DNA of 64,000 bases from a phage. This document shows, piece by piece, positions 696 through 64,000 of this stretch. The position numbers were made by a program, and so were the translations under genes. The notes under the pieces are model-generated. The model saw nothing but the letters and a program-made list of their open reading frames with translations. It did not search any database and was not told the origin of the DNA. How positions within the stretch are numbered: the first letter of the stretch is position 1; every line of letters begins with the position of its first letter. Where the stretch lies: assembly GCA_026110335.1 (NCBI GenBank), contig GCA_026110335.1_3055.1; one strand, written 5' to 3'.

Positions 696-1917
<1,222 letters not shown>

Positions 1918-1921
<4 letters not shown>

Positions 1922-2148
1922 TTATTTTTCTCAACTAATGATTGAATATAATCATGCAGGTCTTTAGATGCTTTACCCCACTTATTTTGATATTCATTTT
2001 TAAGATTAGCCCGAGATTGAGCTAATAAAACATCATTAGTTGGAGGCAAAGATTCTAATCGTTGAATCTGGCGTCCATAAATCATTGCAGCCATCTCAGA
2101 TTCATAAATCAATCCTTTGAGATGTTCAAATTGATGCCATGAAATCAT
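1918..2148 (-). CDS. hypothetical protein (76 aa)
   Basis: ORF track; overlapping start/stop with neighbours. Confidence 0.45.
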
Positions 2149-2444
2149 TTACATTTATCCTCTTTTAGCTCTTGACGATAATAACATATCATAGTTTTTT
2201 GGTCATGTACATATCGTTTTACATCATTAAGCCAAATACGAAATTCCTGGGAATCTTCAAATGGCATACCGACCCAAGCTTTACCATCAATGACTTTAAC
2301 TTGCCAAGATAGTTTAGCTTCATCATATGACTTTATTTGCACAGGCCAATTAGGATGAACTGTTTCTTTCTTTACTTCTAGAGGCTTTGTCGAACAACCA
2401 ACTAGAAGACCAATAGATAATATTACTGCCGATAGTTTAATCAT
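2145..2444 (-). CDS. putative lipoprotein (99 aa)
   Basis: N-terminal signal with lipobox-like LLVGC (MIKLSAVILSIGLLVGCSTKP). Confidence 0.5.
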   Translation of the reverse strand: MIKLSAVILSIGLLVGCSTKPLEVKKETVHPNWPVQIKSYDEAKLSWQVKVIDGKAWVGMPFEDSQEFRIWLNDVKRYVHDQKTMICYYRQELKEDKCK

Positions 2445-2794
2445 TTAGAAAGGTCCTGGATGTCTTCTGCGAACTTGTTGAAGGAGTTGTTGATTTGTTT
2501 TTCAACCAATCCTGGCTTATGAGCCACCACATCCGCCTTCTTTGCATCTTTGCACAGTTTTTCATTTTCACGCTCAATAGCAGCAATTGCCTCACGATTT
2601 TTATTATTCATCGCATCAATATAATTATACTGAATTCGCAAATTATCTAATGCTAAAGCGTTTTCATTGGCCGTTTTTGTAATTTCAGTAACCGATGTTT
2701 CTAATCTTTCTACCTTATTTTTTAAAATAATAGATGTTCCGCCAAATGCTATTACAAGTAATAGCAATCCAGCTGTAAAATTACTTACATGCAT
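2441..2794 (-). CDS. hypothetical membrane-anchored protein (117 aa)
   Basis: Hydrophobic N-terminal segment (FTAGLLLLVIAFGGTSIIL) followed by charged, coiled-coil-like region. Confidence 0.5.
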   Translation of the reverse strand: MHVSNFTAGLLLLVIAFGGTSIILKNKVERLETSVTEITKTANENALALDNLRIQYNYIDAMNNKNREAIAAIERENEKLCKDAKKADVVAHKPGLVEKQINNSFNKFAEDIQDLSK

Positions 2795-3288
2795 AAAGTT
2801 TTAATAACCTCTACAATATCGTCTTGAGAAAGACCGTTAATTAAAATATGATGTTCAGCTGGAGATTTAGAAATTTTAAAGCATGCCTCAACATCTTCTG
2901 CCATATCTGATGCGCTACGATTTGGATTACTAATTCCAAGACGATGCTTTTCTGTCAAAGGATTAACAATGATGTAGCATTTACAGTTATTAATATGAAC
3001 ATTAGGTTGAGTCTGATTAATGAATACTTCACAATCATATTTCGCAAGCTGATTTTCTAAAAAGACTTTCATCTCCTCAACTGCATCAGGAAGCATATCA
3101 CGGGCTTGCTCAAGACGACGATTTCGATATTCTTTGATGGTCGTTTTCCGCTTAACTTGCTTAGCTAAATCTTTCTTAAGATCGGTGATATATCCAACTC
3201 GACGATTTCCTTTAAATACAGAAATCCCATCTGTAGTATCACCATATGCTTCAACGACCATTTCAGTAGTAATAAGCTGTAAATCCAT
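2785..3288 (-). CDS. alc: Alc, inhibitor of host transcription on cytosine-containing DNA
   Basis: 167 aa from second ATG; position between rnlA and pseT as in T4; sequence matches my recollection of T4 Alc. Confidence 0.8.
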   Translation of the reverse strand: MDLQLITTEMVVEAYGDTTDGISVFKGNRRVGYITDLKKDLAKQVKRKTTIKEYRNRRLEQARDMLPDAVEEMKVFLENQLAKYDCEVFINQTQPNVHINNCKCYIIVNPLTEKHRLGISNPNRSASDMAEDVEACFKISKSPAEHHILINGLSQDDIVEVIKTLCM

Positions 3289-4971: not shown

Positions 4972-5474
4972 TTAAAAGTATTTTTTAAAACTCATCATAA
5001 CTTTATCATCAACATCATTATCAATCTGTGCAACAAGATAAGATGACAGTTCTACTTCTTGCGGCGCGGATTGAACATTATCAGAATTAAGATATTCACG
5101 AATCCAAGGATATGGATGTTTAACCGGAGCATCGGTAATTGGGCATGGAAGACCGCACTGTTTCATACGAGATACAGTTAAGTAATCAATAAAGCTCCAC
5201 ATGCTATTTGTATTTAATCCAGGAACATCGCCATCTTTAAATAAATGAACTGCCCAATCTTTTTCTTGACGGTTAACTTCCATGAAAATATCAACTGCTT
5301 CTTGTTCACACTCTTGAGCAATTTTAACCCATTCATCACCATCAGTACCGGATTGAAGCTGACGAATAATATATTGAGTGCCTTTAAGGTGAAGCTGCTC
5401 ATCACGTGCAATGAACTTCATAATCTTGGCATTACCTTCCATGATTTCCATGTTCTTATGGAAGTTAAAGGTAC
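4972..5474 (-). CDS. nrdB: ribonucleotide reductase small subunit, exon 2
   Basis: Encodes ...TFNFHKNMEIMEGNAKIMKFIARDEQLH... to C-terminus; aligns to recalled class Ia R2 (E. coli NrdB FACSFAFAERELMEGNAKI); junction inferred. Confidence 0.85.
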
Positions 5475-53405: not shown

Positions 53406-54032
53406 TTAACCTCTATTCATAAAAGCATTAAAAATTTGGTCATCAATAGAAACATTTACTTTAGACTGTTTTTCAGATGGCAATTCATATCCACATATTA
53501 CAATTTTATGATCAATATCAAAATACACAGAAGCAATATGATTAATGATATTTTCAGTGAAGTCTAAATCAACATCAATGTCTTTTTGACCAAAACCCAA
53601 AGGATAAATAATGCGAGTAATTCGATTATCTTTAACAAAGATTCCACCGACATACTCTGTGCTGCGTTTAAAGTCTACACGCCGACGAAATGAAAAATAT
53701 TCAGGCTCTTTATGAGCTCGGCTCATAGGGCACAACGAATAACTAGAATAAGAGATGTCAAATCCTACGCCTTCAATATGAACTAAATTGTCATGATTAA
53801 ACCAATTATAATCATATGCCAAGTCCATTAGATTGTCATATGTGAAAGGCACCGGATTAACATCATTGGTCACAAGCATATAATTAGCAACTGCTATAAT
53901 TTCATTATTTTTAACGAAAACAAACCGTGATTGATGCGAATGACCTGGACCTGTGTTTTCACGATTAATGATATAACACTGGGCACCTTTATATTTGTAC
54001 GTGTCTTTACACTTGTGCATTTGATAAAGCAT
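53406..54032 (-). CDS. hypothetical protein (208 aa), 61.2-like
   Basis: ORF track; coupled to sp. Confidence 0.5.
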   Translation of the reverse strand: MLYQMHKCKDTYKYKGAQCYIINRENTGPGHSHQSRFVFVKNNEIIAVANYMLVTNDVNPVPFTYDNLMDLAYDYNWFNHDNLVHIEGVGFDISYSSYSLCPMSRAHKEPEYFSFRRRVDFKRSTEYVGGIFVKDNRITRIIYPLGFGQKDIDVDLDFTENIINHIASVYFDIDHKIVICGYELPSEKQSKVNVSIDDQIFNAFMNRG

Positions 54033-54325
54033 TATTCACCTACCACTTCAGCGATGATATTTTTATTATTGAAGTTTTTATCACAATACAGAACATAATT
54101 ATACTGCATTACACCGCCAGACTTAAGCTGTTTTTGCACTTCAGCTTTCATTTCAGGACGATCGCGCTCAACGATATTCATAATATCCGCTTCAATTTGA
54201 GTTTCAACCTCAGTCTGATCTGCAGTCATAGACCATTCGCACAAATCTTTATCATAATCTGCCATAGCAGGCTGAGCAGCGCAAGAAGCTAAAGCAAAAA
54301 TTGTAGCAAAGATAAATTTTTTCAT
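54032..54325 (-). CDS. sp: Spackle periplasmic protein (superinfection exclusion)
   Basis: 97 aa with cleavable signal peptide (MKKFIFATIFALASCAAQPAMA); position in 61.x cluster. Confidence 0.7.
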   Translation of the reverse strand: MKKFIFATIFALASCAAQPAMADYDKDLCEWSMTADQTEVETQIEADIMNIVERDRPEMKAEVQKQLKSGGVMQYNYVLYCDKNFNNKNIIAEVVGE

Positions 54326-54353
54326 GATAATCTCCTCAGTAGTTTATGTTTAT

Positions 54354-54383
54354 ATAGTATCTCAATTTCTAACAAAAGTAAAC
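54354..54383 (-). promoter_or_regulatory. T4-type early promoter
   Basis: GTTTAC-N18-TACTAT. Confidence 0.55.
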
Positions 54384-54637
54384 TATTTTATTTCCTCAAG
54401 TTCGTTAATCAATAAAAGTTCTCTGACGCTAAAAACAAAGAAAAATGTGTTCCCATCAACCAGAGCATGACCGCTAATAGAACACCCTCTGCGGAATTTA
54501 GAAACTTCACAATCTAGAACTGTAAAGGGTTTTAATCCTATGACTTTAGCTGTGCGTCTATTCAGTTCACAACCACTTGCGAATTTTTCCAAATCTTCTT
54601 CTGATTTAAACTGATATTCTCTATTAACTAGCATCAT
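54383..54637 (-). CDS. hypothetical protein (84 aa), 61.4-like
   Basis: ORF track. Confidence 0.45.
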   Translation of the reverse strand: MMLVNREYQFKSEEDLEKFASGCELNRRTAKVIGLKPFTVLDCEVSKFRRGCSISGHALVDGNTFFFVFSVRELLLINELEEIK

Positions 54638-54668
54638 TTTCTTTTCTCCACGATTAGCTGATAGAATT

Positions 54669-54698
54669 ACTATAACACAACTCTATCAGCTTGTAAAC
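54669..54698 (-). promoter_or_regulatory. T4-type early promoter
   Basis: GTTTAC-N18-TATAGT. Confidence 0.55.
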
Positions 54699-54700
54699 TA

Positions 54701-54985
54701 CTATTTTACTAGCATCAATAACTGTTTCTCTAACTTGACTATTTTACGAAAGTATCTTTTGCATTGACGAATCTGTCGCTTCGTAGGGCGCACAGCAAAC
54801 TTAATAAATTCCACTCGACCAAATGGAGGGCTTTCTTCTGCTGGAATATCTAACACCAATTCCCACGTATCTGCAATAAGTGCTTTGAATTGAGTATTTT
54901 TCCTGATGTTATACGGTGTAGGTTTAAATAAAACAATATGCATATTATCCTCGGCAATCCACTTCACATACTTTCTTGTCATCAA
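54701..54985 (-). CDS. hypothetical protein (94 aa)
   Basis: ORF track; overlaps dmd start region. Confidence 0.45.
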   Translation of the reverse strand: MMTRKYVKWIAEDNMHIVLFKPTPYNIRKNTQFKALIADTWELVLDIPAEESPPFGRVEFIKFAVRPTKRQIRQCKRYFRKIVKLEKQLLMLVK

Positions 54986-55127
54986 TGAAAGCTTTAACTA
55001 ATGCTTTATTAACTTCAGCATATTGAGTAGTAGCCCATTGAACGTCATCTTTCATCATTGTGATTTCTTTAGTAAACATGCTTTCATTCTTAAACCACCC
55101 CATAAAAACTACCTTTACCAATTCCAT
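54945..55127 (-). CDS. dmd: Dmd antitoxin (inhibitor of RnlA/LsoA toxins)
   Basis: 60 aa MELVKVVFMGWFKNESMFTKEITMMKDDVQW...; matches recalled T4 Dmd; immediately upstream of gene 41. Confidence 0.8.
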   Translation of the reverse strand: MELVKVVFMGWFKNESMFTKEITMMKDDVQWATTQYAEVNKALVKAFIDDKKVCEVDCRG

Positions 55128-55156
55128 AAAAATCTCCTCATTTAACCAACAAGACT

Positions 55157-55186
55157 ACTATACCATAGTCTTGTCAGCTTGTAAAC
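55157..55186 (-). promoter_or_regulatory. T4-type early promoter for dmd
   Basis: GTTTAC-N18-TATAGT. Confidence 0.55.
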
Positions 55187-56613
55187 TAAAATTTTAATTC
55201 ATTCGCCAAAGCATCTAACTGAGCTCGAGTGGATTCATTTCTTTGATAGCGATTCTGTTCAGCCTGAATCTGCTGTGAACCTGCTACTTCACTCACTCCA
55301 GTTGGAGTAGAATCTTGTTCAATTTCTACCCATTTCTGATTTCCTTTTTGAACACCCATCAAAAACTTATTCCATTTGTTCTTATCACCATATCGTGATT
55401 TGATTTGCTTAATGAGCTGTTGTTCAGCCGCTGCTAACTCTTCAGTTTCAATGACCGCAAGCATAAAATCAGCTGTTGCTGGAAGACCAGCGGATTCTGC
55501 AATATCGCTCATGTTAACATCGGAAGAGTCCCAAGCTTGTTTACCAACCTGTGCTGCAGTCCAAAGAACAGTTTCGGTTTCAACAGCCAGAGCACGCAAC
55601 TCCTCTGCAATAGCTTTAACAGTTGTGTAACTATTTTCTGAATAAACTCTAATGCGGCAAGATTTACAAATACCTAGATAGTCGACAATAATGATTGTTG
55701 GAACAAAATTCTTCTTGAGCTTCAATTCGTTTAAAAGAGATCGAAATGTATTAGCATCTGCTCCACCAGTGGGATATTGCTTAACGATTAAACGACCGAG
55801 AGTAGATTTCTCACGCCATTTTTCCATTTTTCCTTTATACTCAGCGTAAGAAATATGTCCATCATCAATGTCATCAAGAGAAACATCAAGCATATTAGCG
55901 TCAATACGCTTAGCACAGACTTCTTCTGCCATTTCCATGGAGATATAAAGAACGTTATGACCAAGCTGCAAATAATCTGCTGCTAATGAACACAATCCTA
56001 ATGACTTACCAACGTTAACACCAGCCATTAAAACGTTCAGTGTTCCAGTCTCAGCTCCGCCTTTAGTAATTTTGTTTAGAATTCTGAGTTTAAATGGAAC
56101 CTTACGAGCTTTATTCATATAAGATAGCCAACGTGCTTCGTAGTCATCCATCCAATCATGACCAACGTAGCTATCAAATGAAATTGATAATGCTTGACGC
56201 ATAATGTCAGGAATAGCACCAACATCCGGCATTTTCTTATTTCGTTTTTCCGGAGGAAGCTCAGCATTAGTTTGAATTTCGATTATTTTAGACGTAGCAT
56301 TAAACATCGCCCTTTGCTGAACATATTTTTCTGTTTCTTTTACTAACCAGCTGTGGTCTTCCGGAGAATCAGCTAGTTTTGAAATAAGTGTTTTTACACC
56401 AGAATATTCTGTTTCAGTAAATGAACTATTTTCTAATGCAACATTTAACGCATTAATAGATGGAACGCTATGATACTCATTGACATGAGATTTAATTAAT
56501 TTGAATGTATTTTTAGCTGGACCACTTTCAAAATATTCTGAATCCATATATGGCCAAACTTTTGAAAAATAAGCTTGATCAAATATGAGATGAGAAAGAA
56601 TAATTTCTACCAC
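55186..56613 (-). CDS. 41: replicative DNA helicase gp41 (DnaB-like)
   Basis: 475 aa; Walker A GVNVGKS; matches recalled T4 gp41. Confidence 0.93.
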   Translation of the reverse strand: MVEIILSHLIFDQAYFSKVWPYMDSEYFESGPAKNTFKLIKSHVNEYHSVPSINALNVALENSSFTETEYSGVKTLISKLADSPEDHSWLVKETEKYVQQRAMFNATSKIIEIQTNAELPPEKRNKKMPDVGAIPDIMRQALSISFDSYVGHDWMDDYEARWLSYMNKARKVPFKLRILNKITKGGAETGTLNVLMAGVNVGKSLGLCSLAADYLQLGHNVLYISMEMAEEVCAKRIDANMLDVSLDDIDDGHISYAEYKGKMEKWREKSTLGRLIVKQYPTGGADANTFRSLLNELKLKKNFVPTIIIVDYLGICKSCRIRVYSENSYTTVKAIAEELRALAVETETVLWTAAQVGKQAWDSSDVNMSDIAESAGLPATADFMLAVIETEELAAAEQQLIKQIKSRYGDKNKWNKFLMGVQKGNQKWVEIEQDSTPTGVSEVAGSQQIQAEQNRYQRNESTRAQLDALANELKF

Positions 56614-56622
56614 ACTTACTCC

Positions 56623-56985
56623 TTAAAAGAATTTAAATTTTTTCTTTGACCTTTTATTAAATGCATCTTGCAGTTGCATTGTAATACATTTTTCTACATG
56701 AGGAGCTAACTCAGCTTTTCTTTCTTGGTCAAGAACAGCAAAGTCCATTACGACTTTTCCATCAACCCAATCTAATTTTGTCACATACACAATGTGTGTA
56801 GAACCATCTTCTAGTTTAATGACAATCTCCTGGATAACATTTTCCATGGCAGATTTAATTATCTTAAGAGACTCATTAAAAAGACGTTCTTTTCTTTCTT
56901 CTTCCCCCTCCGAAGAGGGGGATTCATCGATAATTTCTAGATCTAAGTCTAAATCATCTTTATTCATTAAATTCTTCCATATCAC
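56623..56985 (-). CDS. 40: gp40 head vertex assembly chaperone
   Basis: 120 aa; position between uvsX and 41. Confidence 0.7.
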   Translation of the reverse strand: MIWKNLMNKDDLDLDLEIIDESPSSEGEEERKERLFNESLKIIKSAMENVIQEIVIKLEDGSTHIVYVTKLDWVDGKVVMDFAVLDQERKAELAPHVEKCITMQLQDAFNKRSKKKFKFF

Positions 56986-58135
56986 TTAACTGCTCGAGGT
57001 CAGTTTCTAAATCAGCTGCTGATTTACTTTTACTTTCTGGAGATTTAAATTTTTCAACCTTTGAGTTAATCAATTCATCAACTTCAGCTTCAACAATTTC
57101 ATTACTATCAATAGCACCTAACTGATAAGCACGTTTAATAGCATCTCGGAATGGCTGATGTTTAAATAAAGGACCCCAGAATGTAGTGCAGTTGGTATCT
57201 TTTGCACGCCAAGATTTTTCTTCGCGAATCATCTCGCCGGTTTCTTCGTCAAGAAATTCACGAGCATACCAACCATTTTTAGGTTTTACCACAAATCCTA
57301 ATTCTAGAGCCATATCTAACAACCCAGAATAAGGATCGATACCACCGTCAAATTTAACATCAATAAAGAATTTACTTTTTTCTTTAACGGTACGAGATTT
57401 TTCTACATTTAGAACAAATTGATACCCCTGAAGATCAGAACCATCTTTAATCTGACGTTTACCGATAATGAATACGGTATCAGCAGAATACATCGGTCCA
57501 GTACCACCTCCCATAACTGTTTTACTAAACATTTCTTGTGTTTCGTATGTATGGTTAATAGCAATACATGGAATATTTTTAGTACTAAAATAGGGAGTTA
57601 CGATACGAAATAAGCTTTTCATTGTTTTAGCTCTAGTCATATCACTAACAACTTTTTCATTTAAAGCATCTTCAGTTTCTTTCTTAGAAGCTAAGTTACC
57701 AAGTGAATCGATAAAAACGACTACCTTTTCGCCGCGTTCAATTGCATCCAATTGATTAACCATGTCAATACGTAATTGCTCAAGTGATTGAACCGGAGTA
57801 TGAATTACTCGTTCTGGATCGACTCCCATAGACCGCAAATAAGCAGGAGTAATACCAAATTCACTATCATAAAACAAGCATACTGCATCAGGATATTGAC
57901 GCATGTAAGATGACACCATTGTTAATCCAAAGTTTGATTTAAATGATTTTGATGGACCTGCCAAAATTAACAGACCAGATTGCATACCACCAGTAATTTC
58001 ACCAGAAAGTGCAATATTCATCATAGGAATTTTTGTTCGAACTACATCTTTTTCATTAAAGAATTTAGATGCTGTTAATTCTGCTGTCAATTTAGAAGTA
58101 GAAGCTTTAATCAAACGAGATTTTAAATCAGACAT
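56960..58135 (-). CDS. uvsX: UvsX recombinase (RecA-like)
   Basis: 391 aa; RecA fold with Walker A GPSKSFKS; matches recalled T4 UvsX. Confidence 0.93.
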   Translation of the reverse strand: MSDLKSRLIKASTSKLTAELTASKFFNEKDVVRTKIPMMNIALSGEITGGMQSGLLILAGPSKSFKSNFGLTMVSSYMRQYPDAVCLFYDSEFGITPAYLRSMGVDPERVIHTPVQSLEQLRIDMVNQLDAIERGEKVVVFIDSLGNLASKKETEDALNEKVVSDMTRAKTMKSLFRIVTPYFSTKNIPCIAINHTYETQEMFSKTVMGGGTGPMYSADTVFIIGKRQIKDGSDLQGYQFVLNVEKSRTVKEKSKFFIDVKFDGGIDPYSGLLDMALELGFVVKPKNGWYAREFLDEETGEMIREEKSWRAKDTNCTTFWGPLFKHQPFRDAIKRAYQLGAIDSNEIVEAEVDELINSKVEKFKSPESKSKSAADLETDLEQLSDMEEFNE

Positions 58136-58143
58136 ATAATACC

Positions 58144-58821
58144 TTATAGTAGTGTTCTTGTTCCACGAAATACTTCGAGCATTCTTGCATAAGATTTATT
58201 TGGAAATCCAGCTTCAATTGCTAATTTTTTAAGCTTAATAGCACCGGGTTTTCCAGAGTTTTCCCATATTTCTTTAATCTTTTCAATGTTATCCCACATT
58301 ATTGGGTCACGTTTATGTGATGGTTTATTTCTATTATAACCATATGGATTATTAAGCAAAGCTTCTTTTCGTTTTGCTTTAGTTTCTTCTGACTGCTTTT
58401 TGCCTAGCTGGGCTTTCCGGCAAACATCACTAAATCCAAGATGTTTTGGTTTTCCTTTTTGGGCTTTTGAAATTTTTTCTTTGGTTTCTGATGAAACTCT
58501 ATAACCAATTCTTCTACCACCCTCTCCACCAATTTTTAAATTATAAGTCATAGGATCATTTACCACATCTATTGTTACTAATTCTCTTTCAGCATCACGG
58601 GCTGATTTAAAATCTTTATAAAACCCAAGAATGCTTAAATTAAAATTTTTCTTACCATACTTTTTCTTGGCTTGTGCTAATAAAGTTCCTGATCCCATAT
58701 AACCATCATTTAAATCATCGGTTGAATGAGTTCCATAGTAAATTTTATTATTAACTAAATTAGTTATAACATAAGTATAATTATATTTCTTTTCTTTATG
58801 TCTTTTCATGTCATTAATCAA
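58144..58821 (-). CDS. GIY-YIG homing endonuclease, SegA-like
   Basis: 225 aa; N-terminal GIY-YIG module (YNYTYVITNLVNNKIYYGTHS...R...E...N) and basic C-terminal DNA-binding region; free-standing between uvsX and the glycosyltransferase-locus gene. Confidence 0.7.
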   Translation of the reverse strand: MINDMKRHKEKKYNYTYVITNLVNNKIYYGTHSTDDLNDGYMGSGTLLAQAKKKYGKKNFNLSILGFYKDFKSARDAERELVTIDVVNDPMTYNLKIGGEGGRRIGYRVSSETKEKISKAQKGKPKHLGFSDVCRKAQLGKKQSEETKAKRKEALLNNPYGYNRNKPSHKRDPIMWDNIEKIKEIWENSGKPGAIKLKKLAIEAGFPNKSYARMLEVFRGTRTLL

Positions 58822-59662
58822 CTGCTATTGGATGAATAGCATTAAACTTATGAAATGCTTCTGATTTTTCTTTACGCGAAACACACATGCGAAGAACCTT
58901 TAGTGGTTCATCTTCTTCACCCAACGATTTTCGTTTTTCAATATTTGAAGTTTTCCAACGAGCTTGCTCTGGAAACTCTCTATTGATTTGCTCAAGCGCT
59001 CTATTATGTTTAGAATTACTACGAATTGAACTACACCCACCGGGAGCGTGTGATTTTCCAGATACAACTAGATATTTGAACAAGGCCAAATGCGGATAAC
59101 CTTGATTAATTAAATTGAGAAATGCATACATATCTTCGCATAAATCAATTTTTCCATACCCAATTTGTTCTGTCGTAAGTTTTCCGAGGTCATACCATGT
59201 ATTCGTGAATCCATATGAGTTTTCACGATAATTACCCCAAGATGAAGTAATTTTAAAAATTGGTAGACGAGCATGACCGTGATAATACCCGCAATCCATG
59301 GCATCTTCAACGTATTGAATTAATTCATAGAACTGTTCACGAGTTAATTGATTAATTTTATCTACGCGCCGTTTATCGTCTCTCTTTCGTATTGAACTCA
59401 TACGAATAGTAGTATCATCATCGATCATCCAAATTCGTTGACCTGCATACATATCAGTAATTGCTTTACGAGTACCGGCAATTCCATTAACATCATCAGG
59501 AATAGTTACAATTTTAGCTCTAGACCCATAAGCATCATAATAAGCTTTTTCTTCGTGTTCACGCACTACAATATGGGGTTCATAATCAGTCGGAAACATA
59601 TTAAGGGCAGAAACTGCCCCTACACGCTGATAACTTGGAATTACGAATTGAATCATTTCCAC
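58814..59662 (-). CDS. putative DNA-modifying glycosyltransferase (GT-A-like, DDD motif) at the beta-gt locus
   Basis: 282 aa; IWMIDDDTTI DxD-like motif; occupies the uvsX-42 slot where T4 encodes beta-glucosyltransferase but does not resemble recalled T4 beta-gt. Confidence 0.45.
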   Translation of the reverse strand: MEMIQFVIPSYQRVGAVSALNMFPTDYEPHIVVREHEEKAYYDAYGSRAKIVTIPDDVNGIAGTRKAITDMYAGQRIWMIDDDTTIRMSSIRKRDDKRRVDKINQLTREQFYELIQYVEDAMDCGYYHGHARLPIFKITSSWGNYRENSYGFTNTWYDLGKLTTEQIGYGKIDLCEDMYAFLNLINQGYPHLALFKYLVVSGKSHAPGGCSSIRSNSKHNRALEQINREFPEQARWKTSNIEKRKSLGEEDEPLKVLRMCVSRKEKSEAFHKFNAIHPIAVD

Positions 59663-60393
59663 TCACCGTTATAATCTTTTTTCACAATATGAGTTTCGCC
59701 AGTATTCCACCAATGATCAACCAAGTAAAAATGACGAGAATATACATGAAGACTTCCAACATTCCATATAATAGAACCTGCTTTATACTGACGAGTTGAA
59801 TCGCCTGCATTCAAATCAGATACTAATTTATCTAATACGTATTTTTGCCATGCATAATCATTACGGAATCCGAAGACCACGTCATTTGAGCGCATGCTTA
59901 CTACTGCATTGACTTTCTTATCACGAATCAGGTACTGTACTGTATTAGTACACATGAAATCTGACATGCCATCTTTATTATAGTCAAATTGCATGGATGG
60001 ACGAGTATAAATCATGATACCACGTCGAGAATCAGGATTTTGACCAAGTTCAGCTAAACACATATCATACTGGGCATAGTTATCTTCTGACCAAATAGCC
60101 CAGCCATAATTCGAGTTAATTTCGCCTTTAGAAGATGCTACCTGCTGCCAAATCTTTGGTGTTTCACCTGGAATATCTTTAACAAACAGACTTTGAGACT
60201 TGTACCATTCAAGTTCACGCTGAATGTATTCATCATTAAGAGCGCCAAAAATAAACGGTTCATCTGCTACAAATGATGCGCCAATAATTTCAATAGTTTT
60301 AACACCGGTTTTATCAACCACGAAATCTTTTTCTTTTAATGCAAGCCCCAAACGAAGACGGATTTCTTCAACTGTCATAGAGTCACTAATCAT
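59653..60393 (-). CDS. 42: dCMP hydroxymethylase gp42
   Basis: 246 aa; thymidylate-synthase-like fold; position next to imm. Confidence 0.9.
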   Translation of the reverse strand: MISDSMTVEEIRLRLGLALKEKDFVVDKTGVKTIEIIGASFVADEPFIFGALNDEYIQRELEWYKSQSLFVKDIPGETPKIWQQVASSKGEINSNYGWAIWSEDNYAQYDMCLAELGQNPDSRRGIMIYTRPSMQFDYNKDGMSDFMCTNTVQYLIRDKKVNAVVSMRSNDVVFGFRNDYAWQKYVLDKLVSDLNAGDSTRQYKAGSIIWNVGSLHVYSRHFYLVDHWWNTGETHIVKKDYNGEWK

Positions 60394-60400
60394 TTAAACC

Positions 60401-60550
60401 TCAATTGATACATTCATATTTAACTTGTAACAGTAATAAGCTCCAACCTAAAATAATAGTTGGAATCATAAGAGGAACCGTTACACTATAGTATATACTT
60501 ATTATAATCATCAAGATTAAAAGCAACACTGTTATAATTTTGCTTTTCAT
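60401..60550 (-). CDS. small hydrophobic membrane protein (49 aa)
   Basis: Hand-translated MKSKIITVLLLILMIIISIYYSVTVPLMIPTIILGWSLLLLQVKYECIN; ATG overlaps imm stop. Confidence 0.4.
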   Translation of the reverse strand: MKSKIITVLLLILMIIISIYYSVTVPLMIPTIILGWSLLLLQVKYECIN

Positions 60551-60798
60551 TCCTTCTCTCTGATGATAATTACTTGATTTGGTTGTGCAGACTTTTTAGT
60601 TTCACCTGCAATTGACCAAATAAATGTAATAAACCAACCAATAATTGACCAGTTAAACAGTAAAGATGTGAAAAAGATTCCTACTGTCGATTTTGACCCA
60701 CGCATCAAGGCGATAAACCATGGAAGCATGTATATAATAATAGCCAACACACCTGAAACTAAAACCATAAAAATTGAACCTGCTACTAAAGTTTCCAT
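60547..60798 (-). CDS. imm: Imm superinfection immunity membrane protein
   Basis: 83 aa with two TM segments; position between 43 and 42. Confidence 0.8.
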   Translation of the reverse strand: METLVAGSIFMVLVSGVLAIIIYMLPWFIALMRGSKSTVGIFFTSLLFNWSIIGWFITFIWSIAGETKKSAQPNQVIIIREKE

Positions 60799-60805
60799 GT
60801 TTTCC

Positions 60806-61198
60806 TCACTTAGTCAAATTTTTTACGCATGAATTATAAGAATTCACTACATACTCCATCGGAGCATTTTTACCAGTACGCCATTGATAATTATTAGCCC
60901 AATTAGCCCAAAGTTCAGCACAGTAGTTTTCAATTTTTTCTTCACGTGTAATCACATCTGAATTACGATATGCTTGAGCAGATTCATCTGGACGAATAGC
61001 TTCGTCAAAATTCGCCTGCATTTGTTCTACTGTCTGTTTTGGAGCTTCTTTATAACACTTGACATTAGGATTATAAAATTTGCTTGAACAGTTTACAATT
61101 TTTCCTACATCAGACTGATTTACTACCGATCCTTGAGCTACACAACCAGCAAGACCTAATGTAATAACCAAAATAGCGATTTTCATTTCATTCTCCAA
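60806..61198 (-). CDS. putative lipoprotein (130 aa)
   Basis: Signal peptide with lipobox LAGC (MKIAILVITLGLAGCVAQ). Confidence 0.5.
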   Translation of the reverse strand: MENEMKIAILVITLGLAGCVAQGSVVNQSDVGKIVNCSSKFYNPNVKCYKEAPKQTVEQMQANFDEAIRPDESAQAYRNSDVITREEKIENYCAELWANWANNYQWRTGKNAPMEYVVNSYNSCVKNLTK

Positions 61199-61220
61199 AT
61201 CCGTATCAGTTGATAGTTGT

Positions 61221-61250
61221 ATAGTACCATAGAAGAACAGGGATGTAAAC
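61221..61250 (-). promoter_or_regulatory. T4-type early promoter
   Basis: GTTTAC-N18-TACTAT; same cassette as at 13469, 30145, 33791. Confidence 0.6.
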
Positions 61251-61332
61251 AGTTTTGTGAAAAAATTTTTAGGGAATCCAAAGGGTCCAGAATCATCTCT
61301 TTTTCATAAGTATAGATTTATATTACTTGTAT

Positions 61333-61353
61333 GAAAAAGGGACCTGGAGGTCC
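61333..61353 (-). terminator. intrinsic terminator downstream of gene 43
   Basis: GGGACC-tgga-GGTCCC hairpin followed by T-run on minus strand. Confidence 0.55.
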
Positions 61354-61367
61354 CTAGATTTATTCTA

Positions 61368-64000
61368 TCAGCCAAACAGGAAGTCTAACGAAGCTTTTTC
61401 TTCATAGTCCATGCCAGCTGATTCACACATACCCGCAAGCGGTTTAACAAACGATTTTTGGAACAAAGTTGAGTAGTCAATCCAAGACAATACATCAGAA
61501 CGAATTTCTTTTGGAAGTTCTGTACCCGACGGCCAAGCAATGCACTTATCACCAAATGGATTTCCTTCACGTAATGGAAGAACCATTACCTTATTTCCAT
61601 CCAAAATTGGAGCTACACCTAGACCACTAACAGCTCGACGATAAGTTAGCACCCCACGAATGTGGAACGGGCATTTAAATCCTGGCCAACCTTTATCATC
61701 ATATTTCGCTATATCGTTCGCAGTTTTTACTTCAGCAATAACTTTATAGTCGAGTTGACGATATTCTTTCTCGAAGTTCTTGTAATATTCTTGGACAGAC
61801 TCTTCACCTTCCTGAAGAATACGACGAATACTTTCTTCGAGAGCTTCTTGTACTGCTTTTGGTGTTGAACTCTGTTGAGTTTCCATACCCATGATTTTTA
61901 GATGCGGTTCAGCAAATCGCTTATCTTCCATATCATAAACGTTCAGAGCATAACGCTTTTTCGCTTTCCAAAATCCACCAACACCCTTTGAACCAAGTGG
62001 AGGGCAAGAAATAGCTTCACGGTCCATATGCATCAGATGCTCGCGGTTATTCATATAATCACATAACTCACGATATGCAACATCAATCATAGGTTCCATC
62101 TTTTTCTTACCGAACTGATTCATAAATTCAACCAAATCGTTCTGCTCTTTGAATCGGTCAAGACCAACTTTTTCAATAACTTTATCTACGCAAACATATA
62201 CCGAATCAGTATCACCTGCTGCAATGAAATCTTCATCATTAGTTCCGCATACTTTATTCAGATATTCATTAATTTTACGAGCAATCCACTGAATACCAAC
62301 TTGGCCGAAAATTGTGATAGCAGTAGCATTTCGCAAATCATAGTAACGGAAATGAATATTACCAAGAGCACCATAAAGACTGTTAATAAGAATTTTACGG
62401 TTCAGCTGATTTGTATTAGCAAGTGTAGCAGCTTTTTCACATTCTTCAATCAGACTATTGAGAACAGATTCAGTATAATTCGATAGTTCATTTAAGAAAT
62501 CATCACTGAACTTAACATATCGTTCAACTTCTGGTTTAGTTGAACAAGACCCTGCGCCTTTCATAATAATCTTTTTAATAGCTTCGGCATTCATTTCTTC
62601 AGCGAACATTTTCTTTTTCCAATCTTTACGCTGGAAAAATACTTTAGCGATTTCCTTTGGAATGATACCTTCTTGATGCTTATCATACATCCATCCATTC
62701 GGAGAACAAGAATATTCATCACTCGGTTTAGGAGCTGTTCCTGCGATATATTCATGAATTGGATGAACTTTAAATTGTCCACGAATAGTCTCAGGACTAA
62801 TGTTAACCTGACGAATAATGCTAGGATACAGAGACGTCAAGTCAAAACTCATAATATATCGACGAGCAATTGGTTTAGGTTCAAACACAAATGCACCCGG
62901 AAAACTTTGTTTAACGTGCGAACCTTGTTGAGGAATAACCTTATGTTCACCTTTCAATGAGTTAAAAATAATAGCATCCCAAGTTTTAATAGGACTCATT
63001 ACACCAGAAAAAGGCATTTTAGCATAATAAGACATACTTAAAACTAGATCGATAAACCCGCGAATTTTATCAATTGCTTGAACTGATTCTACGTCAATGA
63101 TGTTATAACTAATGTATCGTTGATGATTAGTCTCACGAAGTTTATTAATAGGACCGTCGTATGGTAATTTACCTTTTTTGGTTTCATGTTGAGCAACTGA
63201 TTCCAAAGAGAATGACGGCAAATTAGTAAATGCGAATTTCTTGTACAAATCTAAATAATCAAGAATAGATACGCCATCAATAGAATAAATTTCTTTGCTA
63301 CCGTACACATTTTGAATTAGTTTAGATTTTACCCGACCGATTGGAGAGAAACGTTTCATACTGCGTTCACCCAGAATCATTTTAACGCGATTCATGATAT
63401 ATGGAACGTCAAACCCCTCAATATTCCAACCAGTAAAAATAGCAGGTCGTTTCTGTTCCCAGAGATTGATATATTCCATGAGCATATCACGCTCATTATC
63501 GAATGGCATATAAATTACTCGGTCAAGAATTTCTTGAGGAACTTCATCACCACCTTCACAGTCAAGCTTAGCAGCTAACTTTGCATCCCATTTTGATACT
63601 GAACCGTACATTGAATTCAAAAGGTCGAAAACATAAAAACGATCGTCAATTGAATCGTAATGAGTGATAGCATCAATTTCATATTCTGCTTTCATTGGGT
63701 CAGGAAATTTATCACCAGTAACCTCAATGTCACAGTTAGCTATACGAACAAATTTTCGGTCATAAACAATTTCTGAACCATATGTATCACTGATATAAGC
63801 GAGTTTAAAATCGTTCATACCGAGAGCTTCGAGACCGATGTCTTCCATTCGCTTCATCCAATCTCGAGCATCTTTCATTGATGGAAATTTTTGAGGAGCG
63901 CAGTTTTTACCATAGATGTCTTTGTACTTTGACTCTTCCTTACAATGCCTAAACATAGTCGGAAGATATTCTACTTCACGAGTACGTTCCTTTCCATTTT
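61368..64000 (-). CDS. 43: DNA polymerase gp43 (family B), N-terminus beyond window end
   Basis: Exo and pol motifs (e.g. YGDTDS-like AAGDTDSVY); matches recalled T4 gp43 from about residue 37; true start lies past position 64000. Confidence 0.93.
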   Translation of the reverse strand, partial: NGKERTREVEYLPTMFRHCKEESKYKDIYGKNCAPQKFPSMKDARDWMKRMEDIGLEALGMNDFKLAYISDTYGSEIVYDRKFVRIANCDIEVTGDKFPDPMKAEYEIDAITHYDSIDDRFYVFDLLNSMYGSVSKWDAKLAAKLDCEGGDEVPQEILDRVIYMPFDNERDMLMEYINLWEQKRPAIFTGWNIEGFDVPYIMNRVKMILGERSMKRFSPIGRVKSKLIQNVYGSKEIYSIDGVSILDYLDLYKKFAFTNLPSFSLESVAQHETKKGKLPYDGPINKLRETNHQRYISYNIIDVESVQAIDKIRGFIDLVLSMSYYAKMPFSGVMSPIKTWDAIIFNSLKGEHKVIPQQGSHVKQSFPGAFVFEPKPIARRYIMSFDLTSLYPSIIRQVNISPETIRGQFKVHPIHEYIAGTAPKPSDEYSCSPNGWMYDKHQEGIIPKEIAKVFFQRKDWKKKMFAEEMNAEAIKKIIMKGAGSCSTKPEVERYVKFSDDFLNELSNYTESVLNSLIEECEKAATLANTNQLNRKILINSLYGALGNIHFRYYDLRNATAITIFGQVGIQWIARKINEYLNKVCGTNDEDFIAAGDTDSVYVCVDKVIEKVGLDRFKEQNDLVEFMNQFGKKKMEPMIDVAYRELCDYMNNREHLMHMDREAISCPPLGSKGVGGFWKAKKRYALNVYDMEDKRFAEPHLKIMGMETQQSSTPKAVQEALEESIRRILQEGEESVQEYYKNFEKEYRQLDYKVIAEVKTANDIAKYDDKGWPGFKCPFHIRGVLTYRRAVSGLGVAPILDGNKVMVLPLREGNPFGDKCIAWPSGTELPKEIRSDVLSWIDYSTLFQKSFVKPLAGMCESAGMDYEEKASLDFLFG

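Follow-up and report, generated by a model that had tools for sequence, protein, structure and literature searches.

In T4, the slot between gene 42 and uvsX encodes the beta-glucosyltransferase (beta-gt), and the question raised by the present locus is which enzyme is encoded at this position in the window (the whole stretch of 64,000 nucleotides of phage DNA that was analysed) and what it would do to the 5-hydroxymethylcytosine (hmC) of the phage DNA. The gene is very probably a T2/T6-type TAGT (TET-associated glycosyltransferase, also named 'ggt', beta-alpha-gt or glucosyl-DNA beta-glucosyltransferase), predicted by analogy with the T2 and T6 enzymes to join a second glucose, through a beta-1,6 bond, onto alpha-glucosyl-hmC. 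Genes of this kind are already published with respect to locus, fold and role, and this one is an ordinary T-even feature with hundreds of named records. The T2 and T6 genes were reportedly cloned and sequenced by Winkler & Ruger (in Nucleic Acids Res 1993, 21:1500).

In this part of the window, every gene is encoded on the minus strand, and transcription runs from gp43 to uvsX, gene 40 and gene 41. The region encodes the DNA polymerase gp43 (61368..63956), three small membrane-protein ORFs between gp43 and gene 42, two of which stand at the T4 imm / imm.1 positions, the dCMP hydroxymethylase gene 42 (59653..60393), a member of the thymidylate synthase family that is 236/245 identical to T4 gp42, the glucosyltransferase gene (58814..59656), a segA gene (58144..58809) and uvsX (56960..58135). 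Gene 42, which makes the hmC precursor, directly adjoins the glucosyltransferase gene upstream. On the other side, segA encodes a GIY-YIG homing endonuclease of 221 aa (GIY-YIG, NUMOD3), and a 4-nt spacer separates its start codon from the glucosyltransferase stop codon (58814-58816); its ORF extends to 58821, and the CDS was taken as 58144..58809 because identity to T4 SegA (220/221, 99.5%) begins at the fifth codon of the ORF. This gene shares the uvsX-42 slot and has no part in the modification function. The preliminary description had rightly placed the glucosyltransferase at the position of T4 beta-gt, but the slot that it took to hold one gene holds two, TAGT and segA; in T4 there are likewise two, beta-gt and segA. 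The arrangement 42-TAGT-segA-uvsX is also present in phage PD112, whereas T2 and T6 have no gene at the segA position. Megablast of positions 54000-64000 assigned the DNA to the genus Tequatrovirus, with CJY920, PD112 and CE1 as top matches (~96.5% identity over the whole stretch).

The maximal ORF of the glucosyltransferase gene (58814..59662, minus strand) comprises 282 codons, begins with GTG and includes QRIWMIDDDTTIR / GQRIWMIDDDTTIRM according to the ORF list. The DNA around its start reads GGTGAGTGGAAATGATTC. Two codons downstream of the GTG, an ATG at 59656 overlaps the TGA stop of gene 42 as ATGA and is preceded by the purine-rich, ribosome-binding-site-like sequence GGTGAGTGG; in the orthologues of T2, PD112, teqskov and RB14, the annotated start is the corresponding ATG (843 nt including the stop, 280 aa). 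Because of the ATGA coupling, the putative ribosome-binding site and the orthologue annotations, the likely start is ATG 59656 and the CDS was taken as 58814..59656 (280 aa). A GTG start at 59662 was dropped, the coupling and the annotation of the orthologues both favouring the ATG. The 282-aa protein with a DDD stretch described previously was therefore exact as to ORF and motif, but its length is likely to be 280 aa. The gene is intact, its frame being open over the full length and all 11 residues that are invariant in the family being present. Its GC content (0.33-0.36) and skew are the same as those of the flanking DNA, so that the gene bears no compositional mark of foreign origin. Within positions 58000-61400, a promoter scan gave an uninformative count of 20 promoter-like sites (14.9 +/- 3.3 expected), and a terminator scan returned five terminator-like hairpins, one of them within a coding region. 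A hairpin at 59602..59622 (minus strand), with a GC-rich 9-bp stem (TAGGGGCAG TTT CTGCCCTTA) and a T-rich stretch behind it, falls within codons 12-18 of the glucosyltransferase gene; it was flagged by the terminator scan, and its sequence is conserved in T2 and T6.

The family of the protein is readily recognized. In Pfam, it matches PF20691 (TET-associated glycosyltransferase, TAGT) with 40 bits (gathering score 27.5), residues 5-209 being aligned with profile positions 2-205 of 205, and no other Pfam family was matched up to E = 1. In PHROGs, it matches phrog_842 'beta-glucosyl-HMC-alpha-glucosyltransferase' (E = 2e-88, positions 3-269 of 270); NCBIfam has no model for this protein. A tblastn search against 50,697 phage records gave matches in 689, of which 475 share at least 90% identity and belong to T-even phages of Escherichia, Shigella, Yersinia and Salmonella, and a second group, at ~64% identity, belongs to phages of Klebsiella, Enterobacter, Citrobacter and Cronobacter. 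Many of the matching phage records bear the name beta-glucosyl-HMC-alpha-glucosyltransferase, and nearly all homologues from two rounds of collection carry PF20691. The protein shares 270/280 residues (96%) with that of T2 and differs at 7-12 positions from those of RB14, teqskov, PD112 and T6; at the DNA level, its alignment with T2 and T6 has a mean column identity of 97%. The T2/T6 enzyme has the same length of 280 aa and falls into PF20691 and phrog_842 as well, and its gene likewise lies downstream of gene 42, on the uvsX side, with the ATGA overlap. The T2/T6 beta-glucosyl-HMC-alpha-glucosyltransferase had already been named as a candidate in the preliminary description, and the two family assignments and the identity to T2 agree with that choice; no clear homology to a family outside the glycosyltransferases was seen. 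The family name 'TET-associated' does not describe the context in the window, because T-even phages obtain hmC from gp42 as a nucleotide, rather than through a TET/JBP dioxygenase that acts on DNA (PMC13216743).

The fold and the conserved residues of the protein are those of a glycosyltransferase of GT-A type. In an alignment of 41 homologues, gathered in two rounds of collection down to ~20% identity, the residues I6, R11, R63, D79, D80, D81, D175, G186, G206, G207 and R212 are invariant. In the AlphaFold2 model, the strand 3-7 is beta strand 1, and the strand 74-78 (RIWMI) is immediately followed by D79-D80-D81; the fold is of GT-A type, a beta strand leading into a conserved Asp-rich (DxD) motif, and a GT-B two-domain fold was sought in this protein and not found. 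The triplet D79-D80-D81 (GAT GAT GAT, 59414..59422, minus strand) is invariant in the 41 sequences and is thus a conserved feature rather than a chance run of Asp; as a DxD-type motif, it probably binds a divalent metal and the diphosphate of UDP. At the end of beta strand 1, the motif IPSYQR (codons 6-11, 59624..59641, minus strand) corresponds, by conservation and by profile alignment to GT2 structures, to the N-terminal nucleotide-binding motif of GT2 type, with I6 and R11 invariant and with P7 and Y9 conserved to 90% or more among the 41 homologues. Furthermore, E174-D175 (59132..59137, minus strand) contains the invariant D175, which is the likely candidate for the catalytic base of an inverting GT-A enzyme.

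A PDB search with the single glucosyltransferase sequence gave only chance matches (E > 1) and no structure of a close relative, so that the roles given to these residues are transferred from distant enzymes. The profile HMM of the 41 homologues reaches AvpGT (9jma) with E = 2e-4 and other GT2 structures with E ~0.7-0.9. In the alignment with AvpGT, IPSYxR falls on IPTYNR, R63 on a conserved Arg and MIDDD on FLDDDD. IPSYQR falls also on VPTYN of TarS (5tze), and DDD falls on the DDD/DSD motifs of 9jma, 5tze and 2z86. In weaker profile alignments, E174-D175 falls on an 'ED' in AvpGT and on the 'ED' of residues 177-178 in TarS, where D178 is the proposed catalytic base. The structural neighbours of the model are WrtF (9omh, score 13.3), AvpGT (9jma, 13.2), GalNAc-T1 (8v9q, 13.0), chondroitin polymerase (2z86, 12.6), GlfT2 (4fix, 12.5), TarS (5tze, 12.4) and cellulose synthase (4p00, 12.2). 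The GT2 neighbours invert the anomeric configuration, which fits the formation of a beta linkage from UDP-alpha-glucose. The glucosyltransferase is nevertheless only 8-16% identical to bacterial inverting GT-A enzymes of GT2 (TarS 5tze, AvpGT 9jma, chondroitin polymerase 2z86), it has no membrane or accessory domains, and its predicted acceptor is a sugar on duplex DNA, whereas bacterial GT2 enzymes act on a lipid-linked or polymeric glycan. An AlphaFold3 model of the T6 protein has also given a GT-A fold, and the phage TAGTs were described as a sister group, not a subgroup, of GT2 (PMC13216743). The hydrophobic strand followed by DDD and the GT-A fold proposed earlier from the reading frame are both borne out, the strand and the triplet adjoining in the AlphaFold2 model with the triplet invariant in 41 sequences, and the fold being recovered in that model.

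The protein is clearly distinct from T4 beta-gt (b-gt, PF09198, PDB 1JG7). The best BLASTP match to b-gt has E = 4.1 over 35 residues, in line with the earlier remark that the two do not resemble each other, and the strong identity that would have spoken against this remark is absent. Both genes occupy the slot between gene 42 and segA/uvsX, and both enzymes (TAGT by prediction) use UDP-glucose as donor and form a beta linkage on phage hmC DNA (PMC13216743). In contrast, T4 beta-gt has 351 aa, a GT-B fold (PMC13216743) and bare hmC as acceptor, whereas the TAGT of the window has 280 aa, a GT-A fold and, as predicted, alpha-glucosyl-hmC as acceptor.

On this basis, a pathway in three steps can be proposed. 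The gp42 protein would make hm-dCMP, leading to hmC in the phage DNA; an alpha-glucosyltransferase, which would be coded beyond the window, would place one alpha-linked glucose on hmC; and TAGT, with UDP-glucose, would attach another glucose by a beta-1,6 linkage to give gentiobiosyl-hmC. In this scheme, TAGT would act as a single-domain GT-A glycosyltransferase nearest to GT2-family enzymes, with IPSYQR and D79-D80-D81 holding UDP-glucose via a divalent metal and with D175 as the likely base activating the first glucose at its 6-OH, for a transfer that inverts by single displacement (from UDP-alpha-Glc to a beta linkage). The gene would be translationally coupled to gene 42 via the ATGA overlap, and its expression would therefore be expected together with the early replication and nucleotide-metabolism genes. 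A tblastn search of the window with T6 alpha-gt and T4 beta-gt as queries detected neither gene (best E = 1.6). By T4/T6 synteny, alpha-gt has its locus ~9 kb past gene 43, between genes 47 and 55, and thus outside the window; the relatives PD112 and T6 both carry alpha-gt, and the acceptor-producing enzyme is assumed from these relatives because its locus would be located beyond the window.

The literature on related phages is consistent with this pathway. TAGT was described as syntenic with T4 beta-GT, and Tequatrovirus phages encoding alpha-GT and TAGT contain alpha-glucosyl- and alpha-gentiobiosyl-hmC and no beta-glucosyl-hmC according to HPLC/MS (PMC13390438). The T2/T6 enzymes are assigned to the second glucosylation step, while TAGT homologues also occur alongside beta-GT or alone and the biological function of TAGTs was called 'yet-to-be defined' (PMC13216743). 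The extent of modification is unpredictable from sequence, because di-glucosylation amounts to ~5% in T2 and ~72% in T6 (figures quoted in PMC13390438) despite ~96% identical enzymes. For annotation, the value of the gene is that the window would belong to a T2/T6-type Tequatrovirus, with alpha-gt and TAGT expected, and not to a T4-type one, with alpha-gt alongside beta-gt; the phage DNA should therefore contain gentiobiosyl-hmC and be devoid of beta-glucosyl-hmC. TAGT would thereby decide between one glucose and the gentiobiose disaccharide on phage hmC and influence the sensitivity to modification-dependent defences, among which the Brig1 glycosylase has alpha-glucosyl-hmC as its target, while GmrSD is directed at both glucosyl- and gentiobiosyl-hmC (PMC13216743).

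Direct glucosylation of bare hmC, by which TAGT would be the functional counterpart of T4 beta-gt instead of acting at the second step, could be suggested by the exact T4 beta-gt position of the gene, by the phages that carry TAGT homologues without alpha-GT or beta-GT (PMC13216743) and by several database records that say just 'beta-glucosyltransferase' or 'glucosyl transferase'. It is however very improbable in view of the 96% identity to the T2/T6 enzymes, which the literature places at the second step (PMC13216743), of the Tequatrovirus phages with alpha-GT and TAGT that lack beta-glucosyl-hmC by LC-MS (PMC13390438), and of the missing kinship to beta-gt in sequence and in fold. Near-identity to the T2/T6 genes also bears on the nature of the sugar, as T2/T6 DNA carries glucose and gentiobiose. 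A different sugar (e.g. arabinose, as in RB69-like phages) or a non-DNA acceptor consequently has next to no probability, although the donors of GT-A/GT2 enzymes are diverse, the fold alone does not fix the sugar, and no donor-specificity residues are defined for the TAGT family; indeed, the arabinosylating Mosigvirus phages have a different chemistry and gene set (PMC13390438), and the gene is coupled to gene 42 in the genome.

A weak or dead allele, contributing little to modification, would have precedents in reference records with lesions (R11H in T2; an amber codon or a deletion in the DDD motif in T6). The allele of the window keeps R11 and has neither the amber codon nor the DDD deletion, and its private substitutions all lie outside the 25 columns that are invariant or at least 90% conserved. 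Since, in addition, the frame is fully open and every invariant residue is present (11/11), there is hardly any likelihood that this allele is impaired, and a functional TAGT acting at the second step of glucosylation is the reading retained here.

The reference alleles deserve a separate description. In T2 (AP018813, 4007-4849 of the compared stretch), residue 11 is His (SYQH, R11H) in 7/7 records, and Arg (SYQR) is found in all 41 aligned members. In one T6 record (MH550421, 4138-4980 of the compared stretch), codon 10 is an amber codon (TAG) and the gene is annotated from Met20; in the other, independent T6 record (AP018814 / NC_054907, 31-870 of the compared stretch), a 3-nt deletion removes one Asp of DDD. 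Apart from the amber codon, the T6 protein has 11 substitutions relative to that of the window, and the residues of the window protein that are private or rare with respect to T2/T6 are N19, I89, K95, R97, S202 and H203. The R11H substitution may explain the classically low (~5%) gentiobiosylation of T2 DNA, and the T6 stocks in use today may lack full capacity for adding the second glucose. It is tentatively conceivable, though rather doubtful, that the allele of the window represents the fully active form and the T2/T6 laboratory alleles are hypomorphic or null, and that, separately, the T4 beta-gt cassette displaced TAGT. If this were true, the low gentiobiosylation of T2 and the behaviour of T6 stocks might be an effect of laboratory alleles and not wild-type biology.

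Comparison with T4 further delimits the exchanged segment. At the 3' end of gene 42 (59653..59670, minus strand), homology to T4 breaks in the last ~five codons, gp42 ending in ...KKDYNGEWK* in the TAGT-type version of the window and in ...KKDYVGKYA* in T4; this TAGT-type end supplies the ribosome-binding site and the ATGA coupling, and the 5' boundary of the glucosyltransferase cassette exchange lies here. On the other side, homology between the window and T4 begins at 58836 and runs on through segA into uvsX. It thus covers the last 7 TAGT codons and the stop (58814..58836, minus strand), at the 3' boundary of the TAGT / beta-gt exchange: T4 (NC_000866) contains, at 5241-5263 of the compared stretch, a near-identical copy of 23 nt (TTCATCGAATAGCAGTTGATTAA) that matches the TAGT 3' end at 22/23 positions, is non-coding there and lies before the 4-nt spacer preceding segA. 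With sharp breaks on both sides, the TAGT and beta-gt cassettes are therefore exchanged between well-marked limits. This arrangement suggests that the T4 beta-gt cassette displaced TAGT in a 42-TAGT-segA-uvsX ancestor, or that the TAGT 3' end travelled with segA during its homing; neither segA nor a remnant nor synteny is mentioned in PMC13216743.

The interpretation of the T4 copy as a clean relic of TAGT was dropped, as Pu-Krd-SF5, which has beta-gt and is devoid of segA, has at 2692-2723 of the compared stretch a version that shares its first 13 nt (TTCATCGAATAGC), followed by a 9-nt insertion and then by a diverged form of the remainder. On this comparison, only the last ~10 nt and the spacer are identifiable as unambiguously TAGT-type in T4, and the apparent history is not one simple replacement; it may have involved a microhomology crossover or co-conversion during segA homing.

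In some other phages, among them KMB26 (Tequatrovirus; 1153-3077 of the compared stretch), Merlin, CC31, EnA02 and STP4-a, the slot from gene 42 to uvsX contains TAGT in tandem with a beta-gt homologue, which shares ~50-55% identity with T4 b-gt. At least three configurations of the slot therefore exist, with TAGT alone, with beta-gt alone or with the two together. Furthermore, a small hydrophobic ORF of Pu-Krd-SF5 and T4, absent from the window, was noticed next to beta-gt. In Pu-Krd-SF5, this unannotated ORF of 36 aa (MLGPLLLIIGLGLFAFLGLFVMLVRKERISSNSQTPS) lies directly downstream of beta-gt at ~2607-2717 of the compared stretch, and in T4 (~5264-5350, minus strand, of the compared stretch) a 1-nt difference shifts the frame and cuts the 36-aa ORF to 24 aa.
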